Source of the DNA: a virus
Virus record (IMG/VR): IMGVR_UViG_3300009093_000003
Coordinates: 1-64,000 of that record
Length of the DNA stretch: 64,000 bases
Strand: one strand, 5' to 3'
Both the position numbers and the translations under genes were made by a program. Under the pieces are notes generated by a model. It saw nothing but the letters and a program-made list of their open reading frames with translations, did no database searches and had not been told where the DNA came from. Numbering within the stretch: position 1 is the first letter of the stretch; every line of letters begins with the position of its first letter. Shown here piece after piece: positions 5,189 to 58,375 of the stretch.

Positions 5189-5360
5189 AAAAGTAGAGGG
5201 GTAGAGCGCTCGTGTCTTGAAATAATAGACAATTTAACATAGTACGGGTTCGACAAATAGGATGGCTCAAGATGTAGGTTAGGACGAATGCGATAAACAA
5301 GATTAATAATCGGCTAAATTCTATTAACGTTAGGACTACCATAACCCTCTACTTTTTTTT
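5189..5360 (+). ncRNA. candidate structured RNA (long closing helix with nested stems)
   Basis: AAAAGTAGAGGG 5189-5200 is the exact complement of CCCTCTACTTTT 5345-5356; nested GTAG/CTAC, TCGT/ACGA, TCTTGA/TCAAGA; ends in a T-run. Confidence 0.45.
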
Positions 5361-5374
5361 AAATATTTAAACCA

Positions 5375-5698
5375 ATGAGCAGAAAATTAACATTACCCGT
5401 TGTTTCATTTAGGCAAACGCCCGAAGAACCAATTTTTATTTATGCCTTGAATAGCGACAGGCAGCCGGAATTAGGCGAATATGTTGATATGCCCGTATAT
5501 GGCAACTTTGCGCGGGTGCAAAAAGTGATATCTCACTCTCAATTGCACAAAGGACACCCTGTTATAGAAGCCTCATCGAACAAAAAATATGGCTTGCCTC
5601 AATTACCGGCCAAATTTGTAGAAGCGTACAATGATTGCCCTGCGGATAACCCGCGCGTTACCTTGTGGCTTGAAGATGTTAAAACAGTAAACCAATAA
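5375..5698 (+). CDS. hypothetical protein
   Basis: 107 aa ORF. Confidence 0.65.
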   Translation: MSRKLTLPVVSFRQTPEEPIFIYALNSDRQPELGEYVDMPVYGNFARVQKVISHSQLHKGHPVIEASSNKKYGLPQLPAKFVEAYNDCPADNPRVTLWLEDVKTVNQ

Positions 5699-5703
5699 AA
5701 ATT

Positions 5704-6174
5704 ATGGAAACAGATCAAAAACAGGAAACCGGCTTAGTCCTAACCTCAAATAAGCTTTTAAGCCTCGATAAAGCCTCCCTGACGGAGTTTGCCCAGGCGG
5801 TGACAGATAAATACCTTGACGGCTTTAGTAACCCCGCAGAGGGCAAATTACTGGCTAAAAAGATGGGTGACTTCGCCGAACTGGTAAGCAGCAACCTTTC
5901 CGATGCTGCAGCCAGCGAATTAAAACTGGCTAAGGGCGAAAAAAGGGAATTTATGGGCGCAACGGTTACAGAACAAATGTTAGGGACGCGCTACTCTTTC
6001 AAAGAATGCGGGGATCCCATCTGGAACGAGTTAACCGAAAAGATCAAAAAGCGTGAGGACTTTTTAAAAACAATTAACGGCAGCCAACAGGTGCTGATCG
6101 AGGAAACCGGCGAAGTGGTACAAATATTTGAGCCTGTCAAATCAGGCAAACTTGGTTTGGTATTTAAGTACTAA
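5704..6174 (+). CDS. hypothetical phage protein (recombination module)
   Basis: 156 aa ORF between SSB-like and RusA-like genes. Confidence 0.7.
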   Translation: METDQKQETGLVLTSNKLLSLDKASLTEFAQAVTDKYLDGFSNPAEGKLLAKKMGDFAELVSSNLSDAAASELKLAKGEKREFMGATVTEQMLGTRYSFKECGDPIWNELTEKIKKREDFLKTINGSQQVLIEETGEVVQIFEPVKSGKLGLVFKY

Positions 6175-6190
6175 TAATGGTTAAGCGAGA

Positions 6191-6385
6191 ATGAGTGATC
6201 TGCATAAAATATTTACAGCATTGATAATTAGATACGGTGGTGCGGAAAAATTACATGCAGATTTGCTATTGGAGTTGGACCGGGAATATAAAGACAGCCC
6301 CCGGCAAGCGCCCCCGATGAAAAAACTAACGCAGTATCAACAACGTAAGCAAAATGCGTTTAAAAAAATACTTCAAAATGGCTAA
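6191..6385 (+). CDS. hypothetical protein
   Basis: 64 aa ORF in operon. Confidence 0.55.
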   Translation: MSDLHKIFTALIIRYGGAEKLHADLLLELDREYKDSPRQAPPMKKLTQYQQRKQNAFKKILQNG

Positions 6386-7806: not shown

Positions 7807-8353
7807 AATTATGGATGCAAATAAAAAATGGATGTCAAGCGGTAAAATAGGGTGCACTTTTGCTGCGCTATTCGCCAAAAATCCTGAAAGAGTTGACTGG
7901 GTAACCATCGAAAACCCATCTTATTTTTGGATACCAAAAGATAGCGCCATTGTGTCTTTGCAGTTTACCGAAATAGGGGTTACTGCAGCTGATGTTAGAT
8001 ATTGGGCTTTAAGAAATGGGTTTTATGAAGAATCGCTAACAGAAAGTTTGACCGGACTTAGATATCGAATCGGCAACAATATAGCATGGGTTCAGTATTT
8101 TGGTCCCGACAGTCACGTAAAAACCAGGCAAGCACCAATCCCGGAACTAATGTTATGTGTAAAACTCCCGGTTGTTCAATACATAAAGGTTGGGTTTCAG
8201 GGTATATTACATTTGGCTCATGCCAGTGTACATGGACTAACGCAGCGTAAGGCGGATAAACTTTGGGAAACCAGCCATATTAAAACAGCAAAAGAATTAG
8301 GTCATAATCCAACGCTGATTGAGGCCGCTAAAACAACTTTTATACATGAGTAA
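7799..8353 (+). CDS. hypothetical protein
   Basis: 184 aa ORF overlapping both neighbours. Confidence 0.7.
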   Translation: MSEIMDANKKWMSSGKIGCTFAALFAKNPERVDWVTIENPSYFWIPKDSAIVSLQFTEIGVTAADVRYWALRNGFYEESLTESLTGLRYRIGNNIAWVQYFGPDSHVKTRQAPIPELMLCVKLPVVQYIKVGFQGILHLAHASVHGLTQRKADKLWETSHIKTAKELGHNPTLIEAAKTTFIHE

Positions 8354-8774
8354 GATATTAATTATTGGTCAAGCGCCACCAGCGGTTAAGCAAATTTTTC
8401 CATATGATACCACCATGTTGTATGATTGGCTGTATGAATGCGGTATAACGAAAGAATGGGCGCAAGAACTATTTGAGTTTGAAGCCATGACAAACACATT
8501 TCCTGGGTTTGATGCTCACGGAGGGCATAAAAAACCCTCGTTAAATGAAATGAGTGCGCATTATGATGAATTTTTGCGCCATAAAATAGGTGTGGCTAAA
8601 AAAATAATTTTATTAGGGAATGTGCCCAAAGAATTTTTAAGAGGAACATCCATTTGGCACAACAATTCAATAAAGATACTTTGCCTTATACATCCATCGA
8701 GGCGAAATTACACGCTTTATATGGCAAATAAATCTAAACTGATCGGTAATTTAAAAAACTTCATCAATAGTTAA
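8346..8774 (+). CDS. uracil-DNA glycosylase superfamily protein
   Basis: ILIIGQAP (motif A) and HPSRRN (motif B); ATG 8346. Confidence 0.75.
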   Translation: MSKILIIGQAPPAVKQIFPYDTTMLYDWLYECGITKEWAQELFEFEAMTNTFPGFDAHGGHKKPSLNEMSAHYDEFLRHKIGVAKKIILLGNVPKEFLRGTSIWHNNSIKILCLIHPSRRNYTLYMANKSKLIGNLKNFINS

Positions 8775-8777
8775 AAA

Positions 8778-9725
8778 ATGATTATGAACATTCAAAATAA
8801 AATATTTAGCTTTACAGAACTTACCAGCAGCCGCAAACTAACGGTAAAAATTTTTTGTAAAGACATAATTAAAAAAGTCCTCGCTAACTTTTTAACCTAC
8901 ACATTCAACTTTGCGGCTGCGGTGTATGGAAAATTAGTTAAGGGGACTTTTTTAATTATGTTAATCAGAGTAAGCGAAAAGACGATGTACAAGGTTGCCA
9001 AAAACGGCAAAACCTATTACGATGCCTTTTTATTCGTTCTTACCCTTCGCTCTTTTCACCACAACCCCGTATTTCTTAATTTTAAACCACGATTAGCGCA
9101 TTACAGGCGACTTACAGGAATTTCTGATAGTAGGTTCAGAAAATTATTAAACCTCGCCATATCGCTTAATTTGGCTTCATACGATGGCAAGCATTTGCAC
9201 CTCTACTCTTTTACAAAAGAAAAGCGCCAGTACAAAGCCCAGCACCGCCAAGAGATAGCGCTCACCGAACTAAAACCATTTTTTTATTACAGCACATTAA
9301 AACACAACATAATTCAACAGGTAAGTAAGATAAAGTTTAAAGCAGCCTCAACCGTAAAAAATAGGTGCGGTATCAGTGTGGCCCAGGATAATACCATCCC
9401 TTACCAACGTCTTGAAATTAACCCCGAAGTAACACTGTCAGTACGATCAGCAGCTAAAATGCTTGACATCTGCCCCGCTTTCGCCTACGATATACTCCAT
9501 AGCCTAAAGGGATTTGGTTTAACGATTAATCAGAACATCGTGCATATTTCACGCGAAACATTCAGGCATTGTCTTGCCATAGGGCGGCCAAATATTCGTT
9601 TTGACACAAAAACAGGGGTTTACAGCTATGTTAAGGCAGGTTTTGCCACTATAGCAGTTTTTAAAACGTTAGTTGAACCGAAAATTACTAAAGGATTAGC
9701 TTATTACGACAACCCATATTGGTGA
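8778..9725 (+). CDS. putative HTH DNA-binding protein (replication initiator-like?); start probably ATG 8958
   Basis: Basic protein with two HTH-like segments (RRLTGISDSRFRKLL; SVRSAAKMLDICPAFAYDIL). Confidence 0.5.
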   Translation: MIMNIQNKIFSFTELTSSRKLTVKIFCKDIIKKVLANFLTYTFNFAAAVYGKLVKGTFLIMLIRVSEKTMYKVAKNGKTYYDAFLFVLTLRSFHHNPVFLNFKPRLAHYRRLTGISDSRFRKLLNLAISLNLASYDGKHLHLYSFTKEKRQYKAQHRQEIALTELKPFFYYSTLKHNIIQQVSKIKFKAASTVKNRCGISVAQDNTIPYQRLEINPEVTLSVRSAAKMLDICPAFAYDILHSLKGFGLTINQNIVHISRETFRHCLAIGRPNIRFDTKTGVYSYVKAGFATIAVFKTLVEPKITKGLAYYDNPYW

Positions 9726-9825
9726 TAATAATAGATAAGCCTAAATGTATGCTCGGTAATTAGTTAATCATAGGGTTAAGGTGGTCGCACTCACCCCGCA
9801 GGTTTTACCTTAATAGTTTGAAAAT

Positions 9826-10047
9826 ATGAATAATGAACAATTTGTTAAAACAAAATATCCTGATGCTACAATAGAAAAGTATCAAACTCACGGATTTAAA
9901 GCCAAAACTTATTATTTGGTGTGGGAAAGCCACATAAGGTGCGATCGTAAACAATTGGGAGAAGGGGCGACTAAAGCCCAGGCATGGAAAGACGCGAAAG
10001 AGTGGTTGGACGATAAAGATATACCTCTTGAAAATATTGAGATATGA
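9826..10047 (+). CDS. hypothetical protein
   Basis: 73 aa ORF. Confidence 0.6.
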   Translation: MNNEQFVKTKYPDATIEKYQTHGFKAKTYYLVWESHIRCDRKQLGEGATKAQAWKDAKEWLDDKDIPLENIEI

Positions 10048-10206
10048 ACAAGCCAAGCCCCGAAACCAACGCCAACGTGGTAAAACGAGAGCGTCATGCT
10101 ATAATTCGTGTTAAAACCGCTGCCATACGTGCTTATTTAGCACTTAACGGTACTTACCCTGCTTATGCGGGGAAATATTTGAGATATAAATTTATTTGAA
10201 AAAGTT

Positions 10207-10593
10207 ATGAGAGAAATAAAGTTTAAAAGGGCATTCTTCTTTGATGAAGCAAAAACAAAGTTTAGCCATTTCGATAGTTGGGGTGTAAATGCTGATGGCG
10301 CAAATTTTAAAAGCCCGTCGAGCAATAATTTTGCCCAGTCCTTTACTGATTTGCAATTCACCGGCCTCCAAGATAAGAACGGCGTTGATATTTATGAGGG
10401 GGATGTTGTTGAGTACGAAACAACCGAAGGTATTTTACGTACAGGCGTTGTTACATGGAGTAGTGAGTTGTGCTGTGTTATGGTTGGAGAAATGCCCTAT
10501 CAGCAGCTTTATCAGTCTGCTTTTATTCAGCCCTCTAAAGTCGTTTTCCTTGTTATAGGCAACCTGTACCAAAACCCCGAATTATTAACTTAA
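10207..10593 (+). CDS. YopX family protein (copy 2)
   Basis: MREIKFK...QFTGLQDKNGVDIYEGDVV...VIGNLYQNPELL. Confidence 0.9.
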   Translation: MREIKFKRAFFFDEAKTKFSHFDSWGVNADGANFKSPSSNNFAQSFTDLQFTGLQDKNGVDIYEGDVVEYETTEGILRTGVVTWSSELCCVMVGEMPYQQLYQSAFIQPSKVVFLVIGNLYQNPELLT

Positions 10594-10603
10594 CCAATAA
10601 ATC

Positions 10604-10804
10604 ATGAACAAACCTTTATTAAAAGCAGTGCCTGGTGAGGAGAAAACCAAATTGGATGATCTCACTATGGAGCAAATAATTGGACGCCCTGTAGCCCCCT
10701 CAAAACGCGTCATATTTGATTTTGAAGATGCTAAGGTATCCAATGAGCGGCCAAAGAATTTGTTGAGCCGGATGTTGCACTTAGCTAATAAAAGTAAGCT
10801 ATGA
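10604..10804 (+). CDS. hypothetical protein
   Basis: 66 aa ORF. Confidence 0.55.
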   Translation: MNKPLLKAVPGEEKTKLDDLTMEQIIGRPVAPSKRVIFDFEDAKVSNERPKNLLSRMLHLANKSKL

Positions 10805-10914
10805 GCAAGTCCTTTAGAAACGAAAACTTAGGCGTGAGTGCCTATAACTGGTGGAATGCCTTTGCCATTTTGCTCATCTTTTTGATTGTTGCACTTATTT
10901 TAACTGTTTGAAGT

Positions 10915-11097
10915 ATGGATTATATCTACCACGGCGATAAGTTAACGTGTCCTACGCTTAAAAAGAAGCCCTGTAAGGCCGTCAGGCGTTTGAGCGATGG
11001 AAAGTGCATCCGCGGTAAAAACGGATCAATGCTCGTAGAATTTGACGGCAATACAAGGCATATAATCATTGGCAGGCTTTTAAGAAAATTAAAGTAA
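10915..11097 (+). CDS. small hypothetical protein
   Basis: 60 aa; TAATG-coupled to next gene. Confidence 0.6.
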   Translation: MDYIYHGDKLTCPTLKKKPCKAVRRLSDGKCIRGKNGSMLVEFDGNTRHIIIGRLLRKLK

Positions 11098-11960
11098 TGG
11101 GAAATAAAACAGATATTCAATGGACAGACTTGACCTGGAACGTCAGCCGGGGTTGTAAAAAAGTTGACGCTGATTGCAAGTACTGCTACATGTACAGACA
11201 GTCGCTCAACAACACCCGCTATCAGGCAGACCAAGTTATTAAAACTAAAACGGTTTTTACGCTACCGTTGCATTACAAAGAAACGAAGTCTCAATGTTGG
11301 GAGGGCAGCCCGTTGGTATTTACCTGTTCCCTCACTGACTTCTTTATAGAGGAAATTGACGCTTACCGGGATGAATGTTGGGACATTATTAGAAAATGTT
11401 CCCACCTAACATTTCAAATACTTACAAAGCGTCCTGAACGAATTAAAGATCATCTACCGGCTGATTGGGGCGATGGATGGCCTAACGTATGGCTCGGCAC
11501 TTCAATAGGTTCAGAGGCGGGTATGGATAGACTAGGAGAATTATTACGCGCACCAAAAGCAGTAGTTAAATTCCTTTCGTTGGAACCGTTGCACGGACCA
11601 CTTGATTTGATGTATCCGAAAGATGTTTTTCCCGATGGTCCCCAAATGTGCTGCGATGGCAGAGAGTGCGGTTGCCGCGGATTACCAATTGATCCACCGA
11701 TTATTTACGGCATAGATTGGGTTATTGTGGGTGGAGAGAGCGGTAATGACATTGGCAAGTATAAATATCGGCCATGCGAAATAAAGTGGATAGAGGACAT
11801 TATTAACGCCTGTCAGTTTGTGCATACCCCTGTGTTTGTTAAACAGGTAGGTACACATCTTGCAAAGCAGTTGGGTATGAGCGAACGGCACGGAGGTAAT
11901 TTTGACGAGTTTCCTGAAAGCATTAAATTTCGTGAATTTCCTAATCCTCCAAAGAAATGA
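11097..11960 (+). CDS. phage Gp37/Gp68 (DUF5131) radical-SAM-like protein
   Basis: IQWTDLTWN, GCKKVDADCKYCY, QILTKRPERI, NVWLGTS, FLSLEPL, DWVIVGGESG, PVFVKQ. Confidence 0.92.
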   Translation: MGNKTDIQWTDLTWNVSRGCKKVDADCKYCYMYRQSLNNTRYQADQVIKTKTVFTLPLHYKETKSQCWEGSPLVFTCSLTDFFIEEIDAYRDECWDIIRKCSHLTFQILTKRPERIKDHLPADWGDGWPNVWLGTSIGSEAGMDRLGELLRAPKAVVKFLSLEPLHGPLDLMYPKDVFPDGPQMCCDGRECGCRGLPIDPPIIYGIDWVIVGGESGNDIGKYKYRPCEIKWIEDIINACQFVHTPVFVKQVGTHLAKQLGMSERHGGNFDEFPESIKFREFPNPPKK

Positions 11961-13642: not shown

Positions 13643-14026
13643 ATGAACCATCTCGATCAACAAGAACAAAGACACGCCTTTCTAAAGCAGATCGGCACAA
13701 TCGTAATAATCATAGCACTGCTTGTGCTTGCATTATTAGTGGGCATTCAAAAAGCCCACGCCCAGCCACCAGGTAAACACCTACCGCAAAAAATAACGGT
13801 GGTATTTAGTGACGCCCAACTAACGTCACTGGCCGCAAAGATTGACAGCGTTACAGCGATGCTATCTATTCACAGTGATTTGCCGGCCTCTTTTATCTAC
13901 CAATTCAATCAAAGGCTTTTACAATCATTTTACCCCATTACCCACCAGGTGCAGGGGCAATTGATCGATGATAAAGCGGTTGTGCCTGATACTGTTAAGA
14001 AGAAATCAAAAACAAATAATCATTAA
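13643..14026 (+). CDS. exported protein with signal peptide
   Basis: Hydrophobic stretch ending AHA|Q; ATG 13643. Confidence 0.65.
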   Translation: MNHLDQQEQRHAFLKQIGTIVIIIALLVLALLVGIQKAHAQPPGKHLPQKITVVFSDAQLTSLAAKIDSVTAMLSIHSDLPASFIYQFNQRLLQSFYPITHQVQGQLIDDKAVVPDTVKKKSKTNNH

Positions 14027-14047
14027 CAATTTAAAAACTCAAAAATT

Positions 14048-14548
14048 ATGAACAAAACAATTTTAATTTTAATCGCATCTGCTGCTTTATTTTTAGCCGG
14101 ATGCAACTTACCCTCTCAATCTGCCGATGAAAAAGATCAATCAAGGCAAGAGCGCATACAGGCAGAAGGACAAGCGCAGGCCGGGTTGCCTGACGTACAC
14201 AACTTTACCGAAAAGAAAATGGTAAAGATGCTGTATGAATTGCGCGACAACCCAAATCTGATAAACTATGCCTACTTGTGGAGCGAAGTTTCCGGCAAAT
14301 GGATTTATTTTGGCAAATGTATCGGCTATGGCATACCTTATTCAACGCAATACTGCAACCCCGAAAAATGGGTAATTAACTTAGGCGTAGATCACACTTT
14401 GCCGCAGGCTGAACCTAACGGGCTATTTATGCCCTCAAGTAGCGAGGGTACATGGATTATGCTTATTAACCCATCCAACCCCAATGACATAAAGCCGGTC
14501 TATGTTGAACCGAAATTAATTGTTACACCTTTTAAACTACCGGAATGA
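14048..14548 (+). CDS. phage lipoprotein
   Basis: Lipobox LAG|C after hydrophobic leader; GIPYSTQY, PQAEPNGLF. Confidence 0.8.
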   Translation: MNKTILILIASAALFLAGCNLPSQSADEKDQSRQERIQAEGQAQAGLPDVHNFTEKKMVKMLYELRDNPNLINYAYLWSEVSGKWIYFGKCIGYGIPYSTQYCNPEKWVINLGVDHTLPQAEPNGLFMPSSSEGTWIMLINPSNPNDIKPVYVEPKLIVTPFKLPE

Positions 14549-14868
14549 GATACTTTTTTATCACCGTGGGAGTAATAATAGGATTATTGCTTCTCGACTT
14601 CTTAGGAAATTACTATGGCCTTTTTACCTACGGATTTTTTGCCCCTAAAATGGAAAACGTGCGTCGCAAAACTTTTGAAAACACCCAAAGCTACGTACAG
14701 GGCAAAATACAGGATTTAAGCAACTATAAGTTGCAGTCGGACACAACTAAAGACCCCGACAAAAAAGCGGCTATACGGGCTGTAATTCGCTCCCAGTTCG
14801 CCAACTTCGATATCAATCAATGCCCGGACGGATTGAAAGATTTTTTACAGGCGCAACGTGGATATTAA
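14545..14868 (+). CDS. membrane-anchored protein coupled to the lipoprotein
   Basis: N-terminal TM helix; ATGA overlap. Confidence 0.75.
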   Translation: MRYFFITVGVIIGLLLLDFLGNYYGLFTYGFFAPKMENVRRKTFENTQSYVQGKIQDLSNYKLQSDTTKDPDKKAAIRAVIRSQFANFDINQCPDGLKDFLQAQRGY

Positions 14869-14911
14869 TTATCTTTGCTATTATTTCACCTCTATTAAAA
14901 ATCAAAAACAC

Positions 14912-15478
14912 ATGAGCTTTTTTCAAAATTTACACTACTTTTTCACCAACATCGGAACAAAGGTTTCCAACTGGTTTCAAAAAGAACAGCCTGTAGTGCA
15001 GAAAGCCTACAGCGATGCAAACAACGTTGTCAATATCGTTAAGTCACTTTTGGGATCCGCAACCGGGCAAACGGTGCAATTGATTATCGAGGCATTAGCC
15101 CCCGGCGCGTCTGTACCAGTTTTTACCGCTCTCAACACGTTTTTTAATGCCTGGGGTATTGTGAGTGCCGAAGCGAATAAGCCTGCCGCAGAAATCGCCG
15201 CAGAGGGCTTTAATAAGATAGCCTCAATGACAGGGGATAACAAAACGGTAACATTGCATAGCGTTACTGCCGTGTTAGGACACGCACTGCAAAGCCACGG
15301 TGGCGGTGATGCTACGTTGCAGCAGGCGCTAACTGCGATAGGCCTCGTTCACAATCCAAACATTCTTGACGGACCCGTAACTATTACCACACCTGTAGTA
15401 GATCAATCGCAACAGGCAACAAACTTTGTACAATCAGGAAGCGGTGAAGCCCCCGAAGAACAAAACCCACCAAGCTGA
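14912..15478 (+). CDS. hypothetical Ala/Thr-rich amphipathic protein
   Basis: ATG 14912 downstream of TATCTTTG (14870-14877). Confidence 0.7.
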   Translation: MSFFQNLHYFFTNIGTKVSNWFQKEQPVVQKAYSDANNVVNIVKSLLGSATGQTVQLIIEALAPGASVPVFTALNTFFNAWGIVSAEANKPAAEIAAEGFNKIASMTGDNKTVTLHSVTAVLGHALQSHGGGDATLQQALTAIGLVHNPNILDGPVTITTPVVDQSQQATNFVQSGSGEAPEEQNPPS

Positions 15479-15557
15479 ATACGCCGGTGGTGGAATTACT
15501 TTAAAAACTAAAATAAAGTCTTATATTTAACATTTTAATTAATTAAAAACAAAAATC

Positions 15558-15902
15558 ATGTTCAACATCTTCAAAACACATTTCCGAACGCTATTAGCAG
15601 TTCTTTTAGCCTTTGTGATTTTTTCAACAACAACTTTCCAAGTATCAGCAAAACAGCATTATGGCCGCGCCTATCACGCGCCCACGGTCAAGGCCGTAAA
15701 AATAATTGCTTTTAGCATCAATGATACCCATTACGTTTATGTAGCCAGCCTGCCGGCCGAAGTGCCAACAATTTTGAGGATACCCGCGCCGCCCGTTAGC
15801 TATGGCCTGTATGTAAAAAATGAAGCGAAACCTGATAACCTGAATTACCAGCCGATAAAGTGGCGAAGTTTAGGTTTGATCGATGCGCAGAGAAATATTT
15901 AG
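15558..15902 (+). CDS. putative exported protein
   Basis: N-terminal hydrophobic leader ending VSA. Confidence 0.6.
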   Translation: MFNIFKTHFRTLLAVLLAFVIFSTTTFQVSAKQHYGRAYHAPTVKAVKIIAFSINDTHYVYVASLPAEVPTILRIPAPPVSYGLYVKNEAKPDNLNYQPIKWRSLGLIDAQRNI

Positions 15903-18020: not shown

Positions 18021-18052
18021 AAAAGCCTTTGCAGTTTGTTAAGGCTTTTTTT
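18021..18052. terminator. bidirectional terminator ending late (- strand) operon
   Basis: AAAAGCCTT...AAGGCTTTT. Confidence 0.7.
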
Positions 18053-18347
18053 ATTTATTGTGCTTTTTAACGTACAAATACAATCTTTCCATTACAAGCA
18101 TCATTGGCAGGTTACAAAGTATCCGCAGTAAAACCGTGTCCCATGTTTGCAGGAAATTGAAATCCCAAAACAGGTAAAAGATTGCTGCTAACCCGTAGCA
18201 CCATATTTTTGAACCAAACAATTCAAGCATTAATAACCGTAGCTTCTCATCTCCCCTCGCCTTTTTAAACTCAATCAAAATAAAGACAGACCTGGTTACG
18301 ATCCACCAAAACAATAACTGGCTTATAATCATTTCTACTGTCATCAT
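18051..18347 (-). CDS. small multi-pass membrane protein
   Basis: About 3 hydrophobic segments. Confidence 0.7.
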   Translation of the reverse strand: MMTVEMIISQLLFWWIVTRSVFILIEFKKARGDEKLRLLMLELFGSKIWCYGLAAIFYLFWDFNFLQTWDTVLLRILCNLPMMLVMERLYLYVKKHNK

Positions 18348-18553
18348 TTTCGATTTTCCAAAAGGGCTTTCAACCCCGATAATATATTGGTGTTTTCCCT
18401 GATGTTGCGATTACTATCATCCATTATCTTTTCGTTGCTCTCCCGCCACTCTTTTCGTTCTGCCCGATGGTCCTTCATAAGTTTTAAAACAAACCACGCA
18501 AGCGCCACTATAACTATTCCGGGGATACCATAGCTGTCAAGGATATTATTCAT
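18344..18553 (-). CDS. holin-like protein (single TM + coiled coil)
   Basis: YGIPGIVIVALAWFVLKL followed by charged helix, BhlA-like layout. Confidence 0.6.
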   Translation of the reverse strand: MNNILDSYGIPGIVIVALAWFVLKLMKDHRAERKEWRESNEKIMDDSNRNIRENTNILSGLKALLENRK

Positions 18554-18819
18554 TTCTTGGCAAGCTGGTTTCTCAGTTCATAAATACTATCCCCCAGCGT
18601 GTCAATCTTTTTTTCAATTGGATCAATACGCTCATTGACAATCTCCTTTAAACGCGCGTCCCGGCTCTCTGAAAAGTATTTGAAAACATAATGGATAGCA
18701 GCATAGCACAAACCAAATATCGTTGCCCAGGGCAACAATTCACCGGCGAAAGAAAACCAATTATTTTGTTGAGGTTCAGGTGCTGCCATCGTTCTCGTTT
18801 TAATCTTGTAAAAATCCAT
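18550..18819 (-). CDS. single-TM protein with coiled coil (holin/antiholin-like)
   Basis: TM segment then IDPIEKKIDTL heptads. Confidence 0.6.
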   Translation of the reverse strand: MDFYKIKTRTMAAPEPQQNNWFSFAGELLPWATIFGLCYAAIHYVFKYFSESRDARLKEIVNERIDPIEKKIDTLGDSIYELRNQLAKK

Positions 18820-19165
18820 GATTTGTCGCTGCTATCAGTACAAAAATTGTTACTAACATAGTGCCAATATCTACAACCGCCATTAAGTAATAAGGATTAA
18901 GTATTAAAAATCTGTTAACCAATAGTGTTATTACGAAGGTAAAGATAACAACAAAATAGATAACCTGTATTAGTTGCCCCTGCAAGTTTGTATTTCCTCC
19001 AAATCTTTGAAATACATACAGGGCTGATAAAATAAAGGCGTAGTTAAAGGCGCGCCAGTTGCTTTTAGTCAGCTCCTGCATTGGTATGTTCCTTAGCCAG
19101 TAAACAAATACCGTATGGCTTATTAAAAACAATATCAATGCCGCACCGATAAGCCACGTTTTCAT
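18800..19165 (-). CDS. 4-TM membrane protein
   Basis: MKTWLIGAAL...; four hydrophobic segments; ATG 19165 overlaps upstream stop. Confidence 0.7.
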   Translation of the reverse strand: MKTWLIGAALILFLISHTVFVYWLRNIPMQELTKSNWRAFNYAFILSALYVFQRFGGNTNLQGQLIQVIYFVVIFTFVITLLVNRFLILNPYYLMAVVDIGTMLVTIFVLIAATNHGFLQD

Positions 19166-19398
19166 GTTTCGGGAACGGCAACACAAACGTTGCCATTGCA
19201 GGCGCAATAATAGTTAGCCAGGCCAACGGCTGGACAGCCGACATGGTCGTGACAATTAGCCGGGGAGCATCCGCCGCCATCTAAAGGCTTAGGTCGCGCT
19301 GTGCCATTCTGATCGGCTTCCATGCAAGCCAATACAAATTCCCTTGTTTCTTCTTCGAGGGATTGTAAATAGGTGAAAATCTGTTTTTGTGTGTTCAT
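19162..19398 (-). CDS. 78 aa protein with six-Cys C-terminal mini-domain
   Basis: ...LDGGG-CSPANCHDHVGCPAVGLANYYCACNGNVC. Confidence 0.65.
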   Translation of the reverse strand: MNTQKQIFTYLQSLEEETREFVLACMEADQNGTARPKPLDGGGCSPANCHDHVGCPAVGLANYYCACNGNVCVAVPET

Positions 19399-19409
19399 TG
19401 TTTTATGAT

Positions 19410-22400
19410 TTATAGTTGTGTAATACGCGCCCCCGCATCATATGTAACACTTCCGGCCCCGACTGTCAAATTAGTTTTTACAGTAATAACCGTGCCGTTC
19501 TTTGCCCTTATTGTCACCGGGTTATAATTACTATCCGCAATTGAATTTAACGTTGTGTACGATACTGTTTGAGAAGTATTGTTTTCATCCGTATAAGTTA
19601 CCTGCACCTGGATAACATCGGTTGCGATTGCTGTTACATTTAAATATGCAGAAATGTTAAATGTTGCCGTTGATGACCCTACTGTAAACGTTGTAACGTT
19701 GCCGGCAGTAGTTTGTGCCGTCAGGTCGTTTGACGCTTGCGTTAGTGCTATGGTTGAAGGTGCCGCGGATGCGATAAGTGTTGCTACCTGGCTTGCGGTT
19801 AGTGCTGTCGGAACTGCCGTACTGCCGGTCACATTGCCCAAAATGGTGTTATTCGCCTGTGTTTGTATCTTAGCATAAGTGACAGCATTGCCCCCCAAGT
19901 CGCCGTTAACCACCTGGCTTGAGCTCATAACGTGCGAACTGTTAAAGTGAGCCACGCCAGCGCCCAACGAATTAACCGTAAGCGCATTTATAGCCACTGT
20001 GTTATCATTTAAATCGGGCGTACCAGTACAATAGTAATGTGTGCCATCAGTGCATACAAACGCATATAACTGCCCGTTAGCGGTACGCTGGTTGGCAAGT
20101 GCTAAACCACCGCTAATATTGCCAGTGAAGTTAAATGATGTATTTGCTAACGCGCCCTGTGAAATAGCCGGATCGTTGATTAACACATAAAATATTTGCC
20201 CTGTTTTACCGCCGCTAAAGTTGGCTATAACCGTGGTCGAGCTGTTATTTGTGATAAAGTAATTACCGGCAGAAATAACGGGTGCTGTGCTGTTAACAGT
20301 AAGTGTTGTAGAGGTATTGCCTAAAAATCCGTTACCCTGGCTATAGGCAGGAAGAACTGCGTATTGCTGTACATTCGGCGAAAGTGTCCCGGTGGCGCTT
20401 GCACTTAATCCATTCAGTGTTCCGCTACAAGTGCTTATAACAAGGTTTAGAGGTTTGTTATCGGTGTAAACCGACCACGCCGGTTTGTTAGCAGCTACGG
20501 CTGAATTACTAAACTGGCAGAATTGAAAGTAAGCTGATATACCAACCCCGCTGTAAGAGTTAATATTTACATCTGCATAGGTATTGTCAGTCGTCTCACT
20601 ATTGCCAAAAATGATACAATGCTCAAACATATCCCCACGATTAGCGGTTAGCGTTGTTGTACCGGTAGCAAGCAATATCCCTTCATGCCCATTATAATTG
20701 CTGAAAACCTTTATAAAAGAGTTGCTCGATCCTTCGTCATAAATCCCAACAAGGGTATTCGAGAAGAAGTCACTATTGAAGCAACGTAAAGAGGTGTTGT
20801 TTGTCCATAGGCCATTATTACAGAAAAAGCCACCGCATGTCTCGATATAAGTATCGAGGGCTAAAATATGAAATCCGTCACCGGCGCAATTGTAAGCATA
20901 ATCTGTGTTAAATCGGATGCCGTCTACATTAGGTTGAATTAAAAACCCGTGAGTTTTACCATTTATAACCACAACGTTATCAATGTCTATGCCCGATTGA
21001 ATAACCCCGTTCATGGCGGGACCGCCTGTGCCTACGGTTGGCTGTATAAACTTAATACCCTCACCAGCGGTGGACAAAGCCATATCTATATAAAAGTTCT
21101 TACAATTAGCGTCACTTGGCTGCGTAGCATTGGTCATTGTAGTAAAATCGTAAACTACCGCTGCGGAGCCTAACGAAGATGAGGCGACTAATGTAGATGC
21201 GTTAAAGCCGGAAAAACCTAAAACTGCGTTAACGTTTGCAGTAGGCGAAGTTCCCTCTAATGTTACCCCTTCCAACATCGATATGCTCGAAGATATTTTG
21301 TATCTAACGTTCCGAAGTTTAACAACTCCTATCTTTTTTAAATTGGCTGCCGCGATACAAGCGTTTATTGCCGGGGCATCATCGTGGCTGTTATCTCCTA
21401 ACGCACCGTACCATTCCGGCAACAGGTACGTACCGTCAATAACCCTAAGCCAGTAAAACCCGCCAAATGTGCTGTTAAAAATAATCCCGTTGTCAATTAC
21501 CAACCCAGATGAAGAAACAAGTTTAAATGTTCCTCCTCTATAAACAGTGTCTACCACTATTGTTGTTGCCGGAGAAGTCGTTGCCTGTAATTGTGCAATG
21601 CCTGCTACGTGCGGGACATAAGATGTTGCCACATCAGTACTGTCTGCCAATACCGGATTAAGCCTATATGGGGCTTTTATCGTCATATCAGCCGCTCGGT
21701 TTACCCAAATAGTTCGCCTGTAGGTACTGTTTTTCCAACTTAACCGGTTTAAGCTATCGGGATAAATCTTCAACCTGCCAGTTGTTGATGACGGACTAAT
21801 TGATTGTGAACCGAGATCAATGTACCCCTGTCCACCCTGTCCGGCCGCATAAAAATTAGTAGCATTGAGTGGATTTATAAAATAGAATGGATTGCCAGTA
21901 ACGTTTACTGTGTCTGAATTAAGCCAGTTTACATTCATGGCCAAGAACCCGCTCGGCTGATACCCTGCAATTCCGTTAACACTGGCGGCAAATTGTGCTT
22001 GTGACCCGCCTGTTACATCAGTTAAATAAAGATTGTGCGAGGTAAGCAACCCGTTGAAATTGCCATTTTGAACATTATAGCCGTATACGTTACTTGTCGG
22101 GGTTAAGCTAATCCCGTTATTTGCATTATAAGGAACATACCCTGTTGTTGATAATTTTGCCCACCTCGTATCGCCCTTTGGAAAGAAATTTAAAACCGTC
22201 TGCAATACTGTGCTATCTGCCTTTACAGCACCGCTTGTAGTAATTGTGGTAAAGTTCATGCCATAGCCTGCCGAGACGCTTGTAACACTGCCTGGCGCAC
22301 CGCCTGTAGCAATCAGTTTACCATTTGCATCATAACCCACGCCGCCCACTGGTGTACCGCTGCCAATATTCGGTATCAGCACCTGCCCCCAAACGTAAAG

Positions 22401-23054
22401 TGAGTTTTGAAGCCCCAAGCCTGTAAACATATGGTCAAGGGTATCAACATTTTTTAAGTTTATATTGCCTGTCTTACCAAAGAAAGCCATTTTTGTGAGG
22501 CCGGTAGAATCCTGAAAGTTCCACCTTAACTCCCCCGGTGGTGTTACCGAGGGTGTATTTATTCTTAAAGCCCATCCTCTGAATGCTGTGGTTGATATTA
22601 TACCACCCAACGACCTCAAACCATTGGTGCCCACCAAAACATCAAGCAGATCGCTTGTGGGATGTGCCCCCTGTATCACACCCTGGTTATGAACATATAA
22701 ACCAATACTTTCTGTATTATCTGTGTTTATATTCATAAATGACTTTAACTGTATTGCAGTTGTGGTAGCCAGTGAACCCGGTACTGCGGTATAAGTGCCT
22801 AATACCGTTTGTGGGGTTGGTGAGTTTAAAAGCAACGCCTGTGATTTTAAAGTATAAGGCGCTAAATCCCTTTGCAGCTGCACACTGTCAACATCTTGTG
22901 TCCACCCATACAAAGACCCGTGGTAAGTCCACCAGTTTTTGGTGCTGGGCTCAAAATATTTCGTGTTTGTTGTTATCGGCCCCACCGGCGATATTGGCTG
23001 TGCAAACGCAGCCGCCGATATAAAGAGCAATAAGATAAAGCTTAGTTTTTTCAT
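19410..23054 (-). CDS. tailspike/tail-fibre-like protein with pectate_lyase_3-type beta-helix and N-terminal signal peptide
   Basis: PEWYGALGDNSHDDAPAINACI motif then Asn/Gly-rich beta-helix repeats; N-terminus MKKLSFILLLFISAAAFA|Q. Confidence 0.85.
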   Translation of the reverse strand: MKKLSFILLLFISAAAFAQPISPVGPITTNTKYFEPSTKNWWTYHGSLYGWTQDVDSVQLQRDLAPYTLKSQALLLNSPTPQTVLGTYTAVPGSLATTTAIQLKSFMNINTDNTESIGLYVHNQGVIQGAHPTSDLLDVLVGTNGLRSLGGIISTTAFRGWALRINTPSVTPPGELRWNFQDSTGLTKMAFFGKTGNINLKNVDTLDHMFTGLGLQNSLYVWGQVLIPNIGSGTPVGGVGYDANGKLIATGGAPGSVTSVSAGYGMNFTTITTSGAVKADSTVLQTVLNFFPKGDTRWAKLSTTGYVPYNANNGISLTPTSNVYGYNVQNGNFNGLLTSHNLYLTDVTGGSQAQFAASVNGIAGYQPSGFLAMNVNWLNSDTVNVTGNPFYFINPLNATNFYAAGQGGQGYIDLGSQSISPSSTTGRLKIYPDSLNRLSWKNSTYRRTIWVNRAADMTIKAPYRLNPVLADSTDVATSYVPHVAGIAQLQATTSPATTIVVDTVYRGGTFKLVSSSGLVIDNGIIFNSTFGGFYWLRVIDGTYLLPEWYGALGDNSHDDAPAINACIAAANLKKIGVVKLRNVRYKISSSISMLEGVTLEGTSPTANVNAVLGFSGFNASTLVASSSLGSAAVVYDFTTMTNATQPSDANCKNFYIDMALSTAGEGIKFIQPTVGTGGPAMNGVIQSGIDIDNVVVINGKTHGFLIQPNVDGIRFNTDYAYNCAGDGFHILALDTYIETCGGFFCNNGLWTNNTSLRCFNSDFFSNTLVGIYDEGSSNSFIKVFSNYNGHEGILLATGTTTLTANRGDMFEHCIIFGNSETTDNTYADVNINSYSGVGISAYFQFCQFSNSAVAANKPAWSVYTDNKPLNLVISTCSGTLNGLSASATGTLSPNVQQYAVLPAYSQGNGFLGNTSTTLTVNSTAPVISAGNYFITNNSSTTVIANFSGGKTGQIFYVLINDPAISQGALANTSFNFTGNISGGLALANQRTANGQLYAFVCTDGTHYYCTGTPDLNDNTVAINALTVNSLGAGVAHFNSSHVMSSSQVVNGDLGGNAVTYAKIQTQANNTILGNVTGSTAVPTALTASQVATLIASAAPSTIALTQASNDLTAQTTAGNVTTFTVGSSTATFNISAYLNVTAIATDVIQVQVTYTDENNTSQTVSYTTLNSIADSNYNPVTIRAKNGTVITVKTNLTVGAGSVTYDAGARITQL

Positions 23055-23066
23055 TTTCTTTAAAAA

Positions 23067-23630
23067 TTAAGGTTGCACACCTGAAATTAAAATATAGCCT
23101 GTCGTTGCTATAGGGTACCCCCATGTAATTGAAACAATACCGCTTGTTGGATTCCCTGGCGTAGCATAAACATAGTCCGGCGCTGTGCCGTTATCCGGCG
23201 TAAAGCCGCCTAAGCCGTCAGCAACAAATATTTGAACGTAAGGCGTATTCCCGAAACGTGAGTAATAGGCCGTTTGATATGACAGTAAAGCAACTGTGGT
23301 TTGATTTGTAAACGGAAAAGTATCACTATTAACTATTGAACCGGTTGTTGTCACATCAATGATTACTCCCGGATTTTGAGCGTTAGGATCAATAGAACCA
23401 CCTGCATACTGCCCCACAAAGGCGCTTAAACACGCATAGGCTGCTTGAAATGTTGCAGACGAAGTATCACCCAGCGAATATCTGTTTTGTACCGCTAATA
23501 CGCTCCTGTTGCCCTTAATAGCAGTATCCCAATTAACATTCAATGCCCCGTTCTGTAAAGCGGTATTATAACCTAAAACAAGGTTAGCAATTTTCAGTTG
23601 ACCAGTTAATATTTCGTCACTTACTGCCAT
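23067..23630 (-). CDS. putative tail/virion structural protein
   Basis: T/G/S-rich; located in tail module. Confidence 0.65.
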   Translation of the reverse strand: MAVSDEILTGQLKIANLVLGYNTALQNGALNVNWDTAIKGNRSVLAVQNRYSLGDTSSATFQAAYACLSAFVGQYAGGSIDPNAQNPGVIIDVTTTGSIVNSDTFPFTNQTTVALLSYQTAYYSRFGNTPYVQIFVADGLGGFTPDNGTAPDYVYATPGNPTSGIVSITWGYPIATTGYILISGVQP

Positions 23631-23631
23631 A

Positions 23632-24111
23632 TCACATTAATTGAGAAACTATATTTTGATTGACCCAATAATTAGCCATAATTATACAGGCGTTTGCCGA
23701 GGCAGCGCCTGCCAACCCTGCAAGGTTAAACCTCAATGCAGCCTGTAGTGACAACTGGCTTTTTTCAAGGTTACAGTTATTCCCCTGGCAACCGCAATTC
23801 GTTGCATTGAATTGTGCAAGATAGGCGTTCCAGTAATATCCCTGTGCCACTATGTACACCGTTGTGACCCACGGCGACCCCGAAACGTTATCGGTTACGG
23901 TACATACAAATTTTAACCAAACATCTGCCGGAAACGTATAGGTAGCCGTCAGGGTTGAACCCATATTTATCGTTTGCAATAAAGTTCCTGCTGAATTGTA
24001 AATGGTGAGTATGCGGGAACTAACAACCCCGTAACTTCCTGTATCTGTATAAATAATACTACCGCCAGTGAGGCTGTTTTCTACTGCGGTTCCACTTGGT
24101 GTACTCGGCAT
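23632..24111 (-). CDS. putative tail/virion structural protein
   Basis: Beta-rich N-terminus, CGC motif, helical C-terminus. Confidence 0.65.
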   Translation of the reverse strand: MPSTPSGTAVENSLTGGSIIYTDTGSYGVVSSRILTIYNSAGTLLQTINMGSTLTATYTFPADVWLKFVCTVTDNVSGSPWVTTVYIVAQGYYWNAYLAQFNATNCGCQGNNCNLEKSQLSLQAALRFNLAGLAGAASANACIIMANYWVNQNIVSQLM

Positions 24112-24123
24112 GGTTTAAATCAT

Positions 24124-24750
24124 TTAATGGTAGTACAAGGCGTATAGACTGCTGCCGGTTAAAGGCGGCGCTACAGTGGTAATCACATTACCAGCCACCG
24201 TAAAATCAATATTGTAAATTAAAAATACAGTTGGCTGCGTAGACGGTGATGGTGTGTAAATCAACGCTATAGCACCCTTAATAGGCGTATTGGCTAAAGT
24301 AAAAGTTTGATTGCTGCCATTGATTGCACCGGTTGGTATTTCACTGGAAACCAATGTACCAATAACTCCCGCCGAAGCCGATGCTTGTTTTTGCTGCAAA
24401 GATAGCTGCGATTGCGTTACCGGTATTTCAAGCATAACATTTAAAGTATCACTATTAGCTGCGCTGGCCGGAAGATTATTAATACCCCAAACAAATACCG
24501 GTAAGCCATTTGATCTGAACCAGGCAAACTCGTTGTCATTTGGTAAACCTATGGATCCCGGATGCGTGGTGTCGTAAATTTCTTTCAATGAACTTACATC
24601 CAACGGAAAATTATTTACGCCCGAAATGATTAACACCTTGCTAACCACATCCATATTTACTTGGTAGATATCGTTAGAACTTGAAATTAGCACTTCCAAA
24701 ATAGCCTCCTTTTTTATTTGTAAAGATAAATCTTTTTCGTAAATTAGCAT
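24124..24750 (-). CDS. putative tail-associated structural protein
   Basis: C-terminal EIPTGAINGSNQTFTLANTP...DFTVAGNVIT repeat-type domain seen in phage tail proteins. Confidence 0.65.
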   Translation of the reverse strand: MLIYEKDLSLQIKKEAILEVLISSSNDIYQVNMDVVSKVLIISGVNNFPLDVSSLKEIYDTTHPGSIGLPNDNEFAWFRSNGLPVFVWGINNLPASAANSDTLNVMLEIPVTQSQLSLQQKQASASAGVIGTLVSSEIPTGAINGSNQTFTLANTPIKGAIALIYTPSPSTQPTVFLIYNIDFTVAGNVITTVAPPLTGSSLYALYYH

Positions 24751-24823: not shown

Positions 24824-25375
24824 ATGATTTCCGAAATGGGACTTTTAAATTTTATGCCAAAGAGGCTTTTACCAATAGAAGAAATACTTAAATCTAAGTA
24901 TAAAGAAAACCTTGAAACAGGGTGTTGGGAGTGGTTAGCCGGAAAGAATAAAGCAGGCTATGGAGTGATAGGTCACAACCATACTCCATATTTAGCACAC
25001 AGATTGTCATATATCATCAATATTGGAGAAATTCCTAACGGGTTACTGGTCTGCCATAAGTGCGATAACCCACCATGTATAAATCCAGATCACTTATTCT
25101 TAGGTACACCTAAAGATAATGAAGCGGACGCCCGTAACAAAGGCAGGAAAAGAGCGAAAGAACACCCAAGCCTTGAATGTTATAAGTGCGGTTGTCGTTG
25201 CGACGATTGTAAAAGATTAGAATACGAAAGAAAAAAGAAAGCAAGGTTAAAAAACCCCGAAGTATTTAGTGAAAGAGGAAAAAAGTACTACAAAAATAAT
25301 AAAGACAAGGCCAGTGCTTATGGGAAAGAATACTATCTGCGAAATAAGGAAATAGTAAAAAAAAAGAAGTGTTGA
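24824..25375 (+). CDS. HNH homing endonuclease inserted antisense in late region
   Basis: [35 protein letters not shown]. Confidence 0.92.
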
Positions 25376-56605: not shown

Positions 56606-57585
56606 CTTGCTATCTCAATTAGTCGGGTTTCCCTTAGTTTGTTAATTTTACTCAAAAGTAATTCATCGCAAATAAATTCCCAACTATCATCATGGGCACT
56701 TTCTAAAACATACTGATATTGTCCACTCAACATTTTAGGTAATTCAACTAATGGCAAAATACCCGGCTTGTTAAATTCAGGAAATTCTTTATTGCCGAAA
56801 TATGCCGCACCCGAAAAAATGCTTTCTAACCAGCTGCAATTAGATTTAGCCCGGTTAAACTGGCTATCGGTTAACGGATAAAAAAATACCTGTGGGTTTA
56901 TGTCGTGCATCATTTTATAAAATTGCACAGTTGACCCGCCCGGATTATGAAAAAAGTTCCCGTATTTAACACGGTACTCTATCCATTCAAATTTTTGTCC
57001 AAGCCAATAAAAATGCCATTTTTTATTACTGTTGACTAATTTTACAATCCATTCTGCAACGCCAGGATAATAAATATCCCCCATATGGCTACCACCACCG
57101 CGCCACATTATCCGCTTATTTTTACCAAACGGCATTTTATCCTTTACCGGAAAGACAATTTCATTATGCGCATTCGGGATAACATGGATATTTTTATTGA
57201 ATAGTCTAAAAGAGTTCTTTATGCCCTCCGTTGCTACCCAAATTTCATCAAGAAGCGCCAACCCTTTTAATGTGTGCTTCTTGTCCCCGTTATAAACGCC
57301 AAACATGGGGTTGGTTTCCGGCACGTGCAGGCAGTCGTCGTCAAAATCACCTATGACTAACTTATGCATGTCCTTAGCCATCTTTATCAGGTTTAGATGA
57401 GATTCCGACGACGGCCTTGAAATTATAACAACATCATAGGGGTTTAAAAGATGTGATTTTATGTCGTGTTCTGTTGACCGGGTAATGGTAAAGTTTTTAT
57501 TTTTAAGATAATCCAACGGCATCATACGGTAGTATTCGGTAGCCGACTGCCAGTGATCGAAATATAAAACTTTTGTTACGCTCAT
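56602..57585 (-). CDS. glycosyltransferase (GT-B/GT4-like, phage type)
   Basis: YYRMMP, IGDFDDD, HVIPNA, WRGGGSH, PLTDSQFNRAKSN.SWLE. Confidence 0.82.
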   Translation of the reverse strand: MSVTKVLYFDHWQSATEYYRMMPLDYLKNKNFTITRSTEHDIKSHLLNPYDVVIISRPSSESHLNLIKMAKDMHKLVIGDFDDDCLHVPETNPMFGVYNGDKKHTLKGLALLDEIWVATEGIKNSFRLFNKNIHVIPNAHNEIVFPVKDKMPFGKNKRIMWRGGGSHMGDIYYPGVAEWIVKLVNSNKKWHFYWLGQKFEWIEYRVKYGNFFHNPGGSTVQFYKMMHDINPQVFFYPLTDSQFNRAKSNCSWLESIFSGAAYFGNKEFPEFNKPGILPLVELPKMLSGQYQYVLESAHDDSWEFICDELLLSKINKLRETRLIEIAR

Positions 57586-58295: not shown

Positions 58296-58375
58296 TTCTT
58301 TGTTTTAAAATAGACATATTGAGAATAGGCGAATGCATAAAATGAACAAATCAATGCTATTATCGGTGACGTCAT
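58292..58375 (-). CDS. 27 aa hydrophobic micro-ORF (not in ORF track)
   Basis: MTSPIIALICSFYAFAYSQYVYFKTKK*; ATGA overlaps at both ends. Confidence 0.5.
   Translation of the reverse strand: MTSPIIALICSFYAFAYSQYVYFKTKK

Follow-up and report, generated by a model that had tools for sequence, protein, structure and literature searches.

The question raised by this locus is whether a tailed phage can send its tailspike out of the cytoplasm, by way of the host Sec system, for maturation. The DNA analysed (64,000 nucleotides, hereafter the window) is the first 64 kb of the 74.7-kb IMG/VR record IMGVR_UViG_3300009093_000003, which is rated complete by CheckV, and the gene in question, P0001, encodes a tailspike-like protein of 1214 amino acids (aa). 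To our knowledge, the accepted view is that every component of a tailed-phage particle folds and is assembled in the cytoplasm. An earlier note on this DNA had given P0001 a signal peptide and a set of O-glycosylation sequons; its coordinates do hold a single open reading frame (ORF) of 1214 aa, and the strand, which it had left out, is the minus strand. From the sequence evidence set out below, P0001 is a probable tailspike depolymerase with an extracytoplasmic maturation route, for which export is well supported and O-glycosylation probable.

The ATG at 23052–23054 is the first start codon of the frame, which stays open for only four further codons upstream (open frame 1218 aa); the stop codon of the preceding gene lies 12 nt before this ATG, and an A/T-rich stretch stands just 5′ of it. 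The protein starts with MKKLSFILLLFISAAAFA followed by QP, the predicted cleavage site lying between the two: MKK, 15 hydrophobic residues (L4–F17 are hydrophobic), with A16-F17-A18 at the end, and then Gln at the +1 position. The signal peptide was called from n/h/c-region rules together with conservation in relatives; by rule, the n-region is positive, the h-region hydrophobic and the residues at −3 and −1 small, and Q19 is invariant in two alignments of relatives (A1, of 13 sequences, and A2). The signal peptidase I (SPase I) leader plus Gln read by the earlier note thus stands, since the start is the first in its frame, the rules agree and the relatives keep the architecture. Gln at +1 is the mark of the Q-rule, described for Sec/SPase I substrates of Bacteroidota (Bochtler et al. 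2018, PMC5837995; PMC10653852); in the literature examined, phage-encoded Q-rule proteins are mentioned only for Porphyromonas prophages, where their function is given as unknown (PMC10367356). A lipoprotein (SPase II substrate) or a twin-arginine translocation (Tat) substrate was ruled out, as aa 1–25 contain neither Cys nor RR, a lipobox being excluded because the leader has no Cys. Type IX secretion system (T9SS) cargo, considered on account of the leader and the conserved domain at the extreme C-terminus, was also rejected, because no T9SS C-terminal domain model (TIGR04183/PF18962, TIGR04131) matched, the whole protein having no NCBIfam or Pfam match and its last 130 aa none in NCBIfam, and because the C-terminal domain of P0001 is also present on fibres without a leader. 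Within the window, the only other leader-like starts are at 14048–14548 (lipoprotein-like, LAGC) and 15558–15902, both in the early region.

Searched exhaustively with phmmer, a set of 1.8 billion representatives yielded 356 relatives, all of them modular; leaders and sequons were counted on the 152 that were listed. The shared modules are part of the helix (aa ~475–1010; the relative P0010 is 48% identical over aa 478–1200), a C-terminal domain of ~110 aa, which is the commonest, and stalk modules at aa 250–310 and aa 385–488. By a rule that asked for Lys/Arg near the start, a hydrophobic window of 10 residues and a small residue at −1, 107 of these relatives have a signal peptide plus Gln, five a signal peptide without Gln, and 40 neither. 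Their mature N-termini fall into recurring motif classes that start exactly at the cleavage site; the class of P0001 (Q-x-P-V-S-P-V-G-P..T-N-T-x-Y-x-E-P-S-T-G..W.Y) is found on at least 10 otherwise different bodies. Among the listed relatives no recurring mature motif class was seen without a leader (P0048 starts inside an apparently truncated one), and by this sequence comparison the predicted signal peptide plus Gln is strictly coupled to conserved mature N-terminal motifs. The leaderless relatives have classic fibre starts (P0007, 'KISELP'; P0147; P0056) and share the helix or the C-terminal domain with P0001, so these modules are those of ordinary phage fibres. The routing to the periplasm that had been suggested is supported by the 107 relatives and by the coupling of their leaders to motifs at the cleavage site, and we regard Sec export of P0001 to the periplasm as well supported by these predictions. 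Ten signal-bearing relatives that were looked up are all from metagenomes only, on phage-sized contigs of 6–77 kb; a C-terminal pattern scan of 185,579 species genomes found no relative, and a locus search with P0001 alone found no related locus. An 804-aa protein with the same C-terminal domain (contig L009:5800–8214, + strand) starts with MKKLIASLLIAATFQASA followed by AG at the cleavage site, i.e. a signal peptide without Gln, on a contig whose baseplate and fibre genes stand in a P2-like order; phages outside those of Bacteroidota may therefore also have fibre-like genes with leaders.

The second line of evidence is the distribution of the Bacteroidota O-glycosylation sequon, D-(S/T)-(A/I/L/V/M/T). 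An exact count bears out what had been read by eye, namely eight sequons (at D56, D182, D204, D280, D381, D433, D471 and D502) in the first ~500 aa, with none in aa 505–1214. Shuffling of the first 520 aa gives 1.7 expected against the eight observed (P<2e-4), and 8 of the 20 Asp residues before aa 520 are in sequons vs 0 of the 30 after it (Fisher p=2.3e-4). Three of the sequons are conserved in shared modules, D280 in 27/40, D433 in 26/28 and D471 in 23/28 of the aligned relatives.

The family as a whole follows the same pattern. Over all listed relatives, which are related to one another, so that their sequon counts are not independent events, proteins with leader plus Gln hold 822 sequons vs 415 expected (observed/expected, O/E, 1.98), and leaderless ones 102 vs 107 (O/E 0.95; Mann–Whitney p=1.3e-6); permuted control motifs are mostly near 1, and the O/E of each control is equal in the two groups. 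In segments without BLAST similarity to any other member, the O/E is 2.30 for leader-bearing vs 0.97 for leaderless proteins; inheritance of shared modules therefore does not by itself explain the excess. In the window together with five phage loci, nine leader-plus-Gln proteins hold 55 sequons vs 25.2 expected (O/E 2.18), and the 151 others 88 vs 99 (O/E 0.89). The excess in leader-bearing proteins falls by fifths from the N- to the C-terminus (O/E 4.26, 2.53, 2.04, 1.30 and 0.47), a gradient that P0001 reproduces; their first 120 mature residues hold 205 sequons vs 39 expected, and the last 120 hold 10 vs 61. Following D-S/T, the third residue is enriched in the order L (4.5×), V (3.3×), T (2.8×), R (2.4×), I (2.3×), A (1.7×), S (1.5×) and M (1.4×), all others being below 1; the published order for the glycosylation motif is L, I, V, T, A, S, M (2025 review, PMC12871550). 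In Bacteroidota, only non-cytoplasmic proteins are O-glycosylated, the Ser/Thr of the motif is usually almost fully occupied, and engineered motifs become glycosylated by the general system (PMC12871550). O-glycosylation of the stalk by the host system is thus probable from these counts; the N-terminal glycosylation that the earlier note had proposed is upheld statistically (O/E, gradient, third-residue match), the attachment of sugar itself staying inferred and the sequon load not being universal.

With regard to what the body of the protein is, direct searches were uninformative: P0001 has no Pfam family at E<=0.1, no match in PHROGs or NCBIfam or, by phmmer, among Protein Data Bank (PDB) sequences, and none by tblastn in 50,697 records of cultured phages. 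In the PDB, however, a profile built from the helix group matches β-1,3-glucanase, the AlgE4/AlgE6 epimerases, iota-carrageenase and gp150 of phage Phi92. AlphaFold2 (AF2) modelling of aa 478–1214 with the relatives' alignment (predicted local distance difference test, pLDDT, 80.8) gave a long parallel β-helix, a disordered linker and a C-terminal β-sandwich; Foldseek placed this model closest to tailspike depolymerases in the PDB (CBA120 tailspike protein 2 (TSP2), Klebsiella K2-2 TSP, Sf6 TSP and Fri1 gp49; E 5e-11) and to 'pectate lyase superfamily' phage proteins in BFVD (E 4e-14). Single-sequence AF2 of the stalk (aa 1–553) yielded no confident model (pLDDT 30). The pectate_lyase_3-type β-helix of the earlier note therefore holds as a fold, from the PDB profile, AF2, Foldseek and the PF12708 matches of relatives, but not as a Pfam match of P0001 itself: PF12708 is matched by 5 of the 34 sequences of alignment A3 (32 relatives and two parts of P0001) and by the fibre of contig L005, and not by P0001. 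Other domains found on relatives are a GDSL esterase and an endosialidase N-extension. P0001 is, on the strength of this modelling, a tailspike-type polysaccharide depolymerase with an N-terminal stalk, a right-handed β-helix and a C-terminal β-sandwich, its catalysis being predicted.

The phage itself is placed by its large terminase subunit (52542–54656) and portal (50061–52511), which match PHROG families and are 21–26% identical to those of podophages of Cellulophaga, Flavobacterium, Maribacter and Tenacibaculum; it is therefore a distant relative of Bacteroidota phages. From these relatives and the Q-rule, the host is inferred to belong to the Bacteroidota. A gene with a long run of tandem heptad-like repeats (GAASATG[DY][RS]; L014:9720–10712, +) extends past the end of the record, and its repeat is read again at the start of the window (positions 1–330, +), so the record is probably circularly permuted through the repeat gene; L005 ends in a similar repeat.

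Gene order is informative on whether P0001 could belong to the particle. Genes for fibres with signal plus Gln end the tail modules of IMG/VR contigs L002, L003 (three genes), L004, L005, L008 (two) and L015, and in L002, L005 and L015 they are followed by small transmembrane (TM) proteins and a lysin like those of glycoside hydrolase family 25 (GH25). The location at the end of the tail operon, as first read, is confirmed by this synteny, the fibre being the last gene of the tail module in L015, L005 and L002, with lysis genes next. The 71.7-kb contig L015 is syntenic with the window over homologues of the 486-, 1807-, 442-, 208-, 159- and 187-aa genes and an HNH gene, and then carries a 1232-aa leader-bearing fibre that has only aa 1–76 in common with P0001, the upstream 187-aa gene being 49% identical; in L005 the same upstream genes are kept, yet the fibre is another. 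A conserved particle-binding end on a swapped body, with small upstream genes conserved alongside, is the usual pattern of docking tailspikes. The three small upstream genes of the window, candidate adaptors or assembly partners, have no Pfam or PHROG match.

A cultured relative is available in Cellulophaga phage phi18:3 (KC821620), in which gp085, gp086 and gp087, located just upstream of the lysis region, are annotated as 'structural protein' from experimental proteomics by tandem mass spectrometry (MS/MS). Their translations begin MKNKITIIMILMSISFGYSQ, MKKTIYILSILLLTISGVSAQ and MKHTFSIVLFFILSIGLNAQ, with a signal peptide plus Gln in all three; by annotation and leader, MS/MS has therefore found Q-rule proteins in the purified particles of a cultured phage related to this one. 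By analogy with this annotation, and from the conserved N-terminus on a swapped body, we lean towards attachment of P0001 to the virion.

Taken together, these observations suggest that the host-recognition tailspike probably matures in the periplasm, not in the cytoplasm. The route to which we incline, with modest confidence, is that of a Sec-preprotein tailspike that is glycosylated on its stalk and docks onto particles at lysis, surplus enzyme going free. P0001 would be exported by Sec in a Bacteroidota host and cut by SPase I after Ala18, and glutaminyl cyclase of the host would then convert the newly exposed Gln19 to pyroglutamate. The host's general periplasmic system would O-glycosylate the stalk (aa 56–504), while the catalytic helix and the tip domain would remain sugar-free. 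Docking of the trimer onto tail-complete particles, through the ~60 conserved residues at the start of the mature chain, would follow when holin lesions or lysis let cytoplasm and periplasm mix, and any surplus would be released as free enzyme. For phage T4, it has long been established that fibres attach spontaneously to fibreless particles in vitro.

Several points weigh against this route. We know of no mechanism by which a periplasmic fibre would meet a cytoplasmic particle before lysis, and no endolysin was recognised in the window by Pfam or PHROG, which were uninformative here, nor was one identified beside the tailspike gene. The three phi18:3 proteins are sequon-poor (one each vs ~3 expected) and have no homology to P0001 detectable by tblastn, and their MS/MS detection could reflect co-purifying material. 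The enrichment over shuffled sequence, clear for the first 520 aa, is weak when the whole protein is shuffled (8 vs 4.5 expected, P=0.07), so that the strong statistic for P0001 depends on splitting the protein at a domain boundary; the split at aa ~520 is not arbitrary, because it coincides with the start of the β-helix homology (~aa 478). D-S/T-x could be a structural feature of conserved modules, which hold three of the eight sequons, and the sequon load is not universal in the family: the syntenic L015 fibre has one in 1232 aa, and P0003 has one.

The alternative that survives best, though we think it unlikely, is that P0001 is an exported free depolymerase and not a part of the virion. 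It would act in the periplasm or on release at lysis, trimming capsule, extracellular polysaccharide (EPS) or O-antigen during their export, stripping receptors from cells and debris or loosening the matrix for progeny, and the receptor-binding protein would be another gene. A Sec signal with neither T9SS domain nor lipobox does predict a periplasmic protein, the depolymerase fold is supported, and the window has other fibre-like structural genes, for a 391-aa protein with tail-fibre PHROG matches and for a 1431-aa protein; there is also a bacterial precedent in WceF of Pantoea, a Tat-exported tailspike-like trimer that cuts stewartan (PMC7949094). Against a free enzyme stand the particle-docking signature of a conserved mature N-terminus on swapped bodies with small conserved genes upstream, the modules held in common with classic leaderless fibres, and the annotation of signal-bearing proteins of phi18:3 as structural. 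Moreover, several phage loci have, within the flanks examined, no large fibre-like genes other than the signal-bearing ones.

It is improbable that the leader goes unused for export, whether through an internal start (e.g. a GTG at Val24), failure of cleavage or removal in the cytoplasm, with cytoplasmic assembly and purely structural sequon motifs. The GTG codon at Val24 exists, three sequons lie in conserved modules, the sequon-poor L015 fibre and P0003 retain their leaders, and some capsid 'leaders' of Porphyromonas phages have been ascribed to prohead-protease cleavage (PMC10367356). The A/T-rich sequence, however, precedes the ATG and not GTG24, and, of the 112 relatives with a leader, 107 keep Gln at +1, a conservation that makes sense only if SPase I and glutaminyl cyclase act (PMC5837995), which disfavours an unused leader. 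Two further points argue in the same direction. Sequons are also in excess where a segment is unique to its protein and non-homologous (O/E 2.30), an excess that neither the leaderless relatives nor the remaining proteins of these phages show, and the third-residue preference agrees with the glycosylation motif.

Least probable of all is that the phage encodes P0001 for the cell surface or for vesicles, as a moron-like adhesin or fibre serving the host or superinfection exclusion, which could be modelled on the exported fibre-like trimers displayed on the Bdellovibrio surface (MAT fibres; PMC10769870) or on the Porphyromonas prophage Q-rule proteins proposed to modify the outer membrane (PMC10367356), because neither the window nor the rest of the record shows an integrase, the gene is the last member of a late structural operon, nothing in the protein would target it to the outer membrane (neither T9SS domain nor lipobox), and the species genomes scanned with the C-terminal pattern hold no relative.

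Some features of the surroundings deserve mention (Table 1). Downstream of P0001, the 78-aa Cys-rich ORF overlaps a multi-TM ORF (18800–19398), and three further small membrane ORFs lie within 18051–18819; these ORFs sit where related phages have their holin/endolysin cassette, and lysis functions, which we tried to assign to them, were not assignable, Pfam and PHROG being uninformative. An HNH endonuclease gene lies on the opposite strand inside the tail module (24824–25375, +) and has the same place in L015. On L003, three signal-plus-Gln fibre-like genes (5249–6196, 8747–10345 and 13980–15497, all +) stand beside a leaderless 850-aa fibre, and L008 has two (7910–11626, +); with several such genes per contig and a leaderless fibre among them, exported and cytoplasmic fibres may coexist on one particle. 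On L004 (7200–10414, +), a leader-bearing 763-aa ORF overlaps a 324-aa ORF with the conserved C-terminal domain; either one fibre gene has been frameshifted here or the assembly is in error. A late-strand cluster of glycosyltransferases and methyltransferases (57582–60371, −) precedes the packaging genes, and its enzymes could modify a glycan carried on lipid, such as lipopolysaccharide (LPS), capsule or the outer O-glycan that the exported spike would receive.

Table 1. Positions in the window of P0001, its parts and neighbouring or related features
Feature	Position	Strand	Basis
Tailspike-like gene P0001, 1214 aa	19410..23054	minus	ORF and translation
Sec/SPase I signal peptide, aa 1–18 (predicted)	23001..23054	minus	sequence; same architecture in 107/152 relatives
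Gln19, predicted +1 residue, candidate pyroglutamate (Q-rule)	22998..23000	minus	CAG codon
Conserved mature N-terminal motif (P-x-S-P-V-G-P..T-N-T-x-Y-x-E-P-S-T..W.Y), aa 20–76, candidate particle-docking domain	22827..22997	minus	P0002, 3, 6, 18, 39, 43, 61, 68, 82, 152
Sequon-bearing N-terminal region, aa 56–504	21543..22889	minus	counts, shuffles
Sequons 1–4	22881-22889, 22503-22511, 22437-22445, 22209-22217	minus	D-S/T-x
Sequons 5–8	21906-21914, 21750-21758, 21636-21644, 21543-21551	minus	D-S/T-x
Right-handed parallel β-helix, tailspike depolymerase type, ~aa 537–1007	20034..21446	minus	PDB profile, AF2, Foldseek, PF12708 in relatives
Conserved C-terminal β-sandwich, ~aa 1100–1214	19413..19757	minus	pLDDT ~88; most widely common module
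Three small conserved genes (187, 159, 208 aa), candidate adaptor/assembly partners	23067..24750	minus	L015/L005 homologues 35–60% identical, same order
Run of small ORFs: 78 aa Cys-rich, then four with hydrophobic segments	18051..19398	minus	ORF list, N-termini
Glycosyltransferase family 2 (GT2) glycosyltransferase	59625-60371	minus	
Methyltransf_24	59012-59635	minus	
PLOD-type glycosyltransferase	58372-59019	minus	
Methyltransf_24/CmcI-like sugar O-methyltransferase	57582-58295	minus	

Searches of the full-text literature turned up no account of tailed-phage tail fibres or tailspikes that are routed through Sec or glycosylated by the host. It is possible, though we hold this with some doubt, that P0001 belongs to a large undescribed class of tailed phages of Bacteroidota whose fibres are Sec-exported, pyroglutamate-capped, O-glycosylated on the stalk and attached at lysis, so that the virions carry host-type glycans; the late cluster at 57582–60371 might then tailor the host-type glycan. 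If so, a receptor-binding protein matured in the periplasm would be a new assembly step, with attachment at or after lysis, and would explain how such fibres could gain disulfides, pyroglutamate and host O-glycans. Virions of phages that infect a major bacterial phylum of gut, soil and sea would then display host glycans, which would bear on their host range, stability and immune recognition and on how Bacteroidota phages are engineered. The family statistics make of a single odd gene a general, testable rule, for which phage phi18:3 offers a cultured model. What the window adds is the tailspike-depolymerase example and the set of controls, namely leaderless relatives, unique segments, proteins of the same phage, the gradient and the third-residue spectrum.

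Comparison with known systems places P0001 between several of them. It has the fold of the tailspike depolymerases (CBA120 TSP2, 6w4q; K2-2 TSP, 8iq9; Sf6 TSP, 2vbk; Acinetobacter Fri1 gp49, 6c72; PF12708) over aa ~537–1007, and, as in them, its gene ends the tail module and a conserved N-terminus is joined to bodies that are exchanged. They lack a signal peptide and are assembled in the cytoplasm; P0001 differs in its Sec leader followed by Gln, its sequon-rich stalk of ~500 aa and the absence of a Pfam match of its own. Phage phi18:3, a Bacteroidota podophage, has a terminase and portal distantly related to those of the present phage, and its gp085–087 are likewise large, have signal peptide plus Gln and lie just upstream of lysis genes; they differ in having no detectable sequence similarity to P0001, no sequon enrichment and no Pfam domains. 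With the Q-rule substrates of Bacteroidota, P0001 shares the leader architecture and the Gln at +1; those are cellular envelope proteins, and P0001 is phage-encoded. The likeness to Bacteroidota O-glycosylation substrates lies in the non-cytoplasmic targeting predicted from the leader, the motif excess and, at the level of the family, the third-residue preference; no phage virion protein is among those described in the literature examined, and P0001 is a candidate from its sequence. WceF of Pantoea stewartii (6tgf; PMC7949094) and the Bdellovibrio MAT fibres (PMC10769870) are also exported, with tailspike-like and tail-fibre-like folds, respectively; WceF is chromosomal and has a Tat leader, the MAT fibres are chromosomal and displayed on the surface of the predator, and both stand outside any phage structural operon, unlike P0001. 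Late phage proteins known to cross the inner membrane before lysis include the Sec-exported and signal-arrest-release (SAR) endolysins (fOg44 Lys44; PMC6116005), which are lysis enzymes and not virion appendages.

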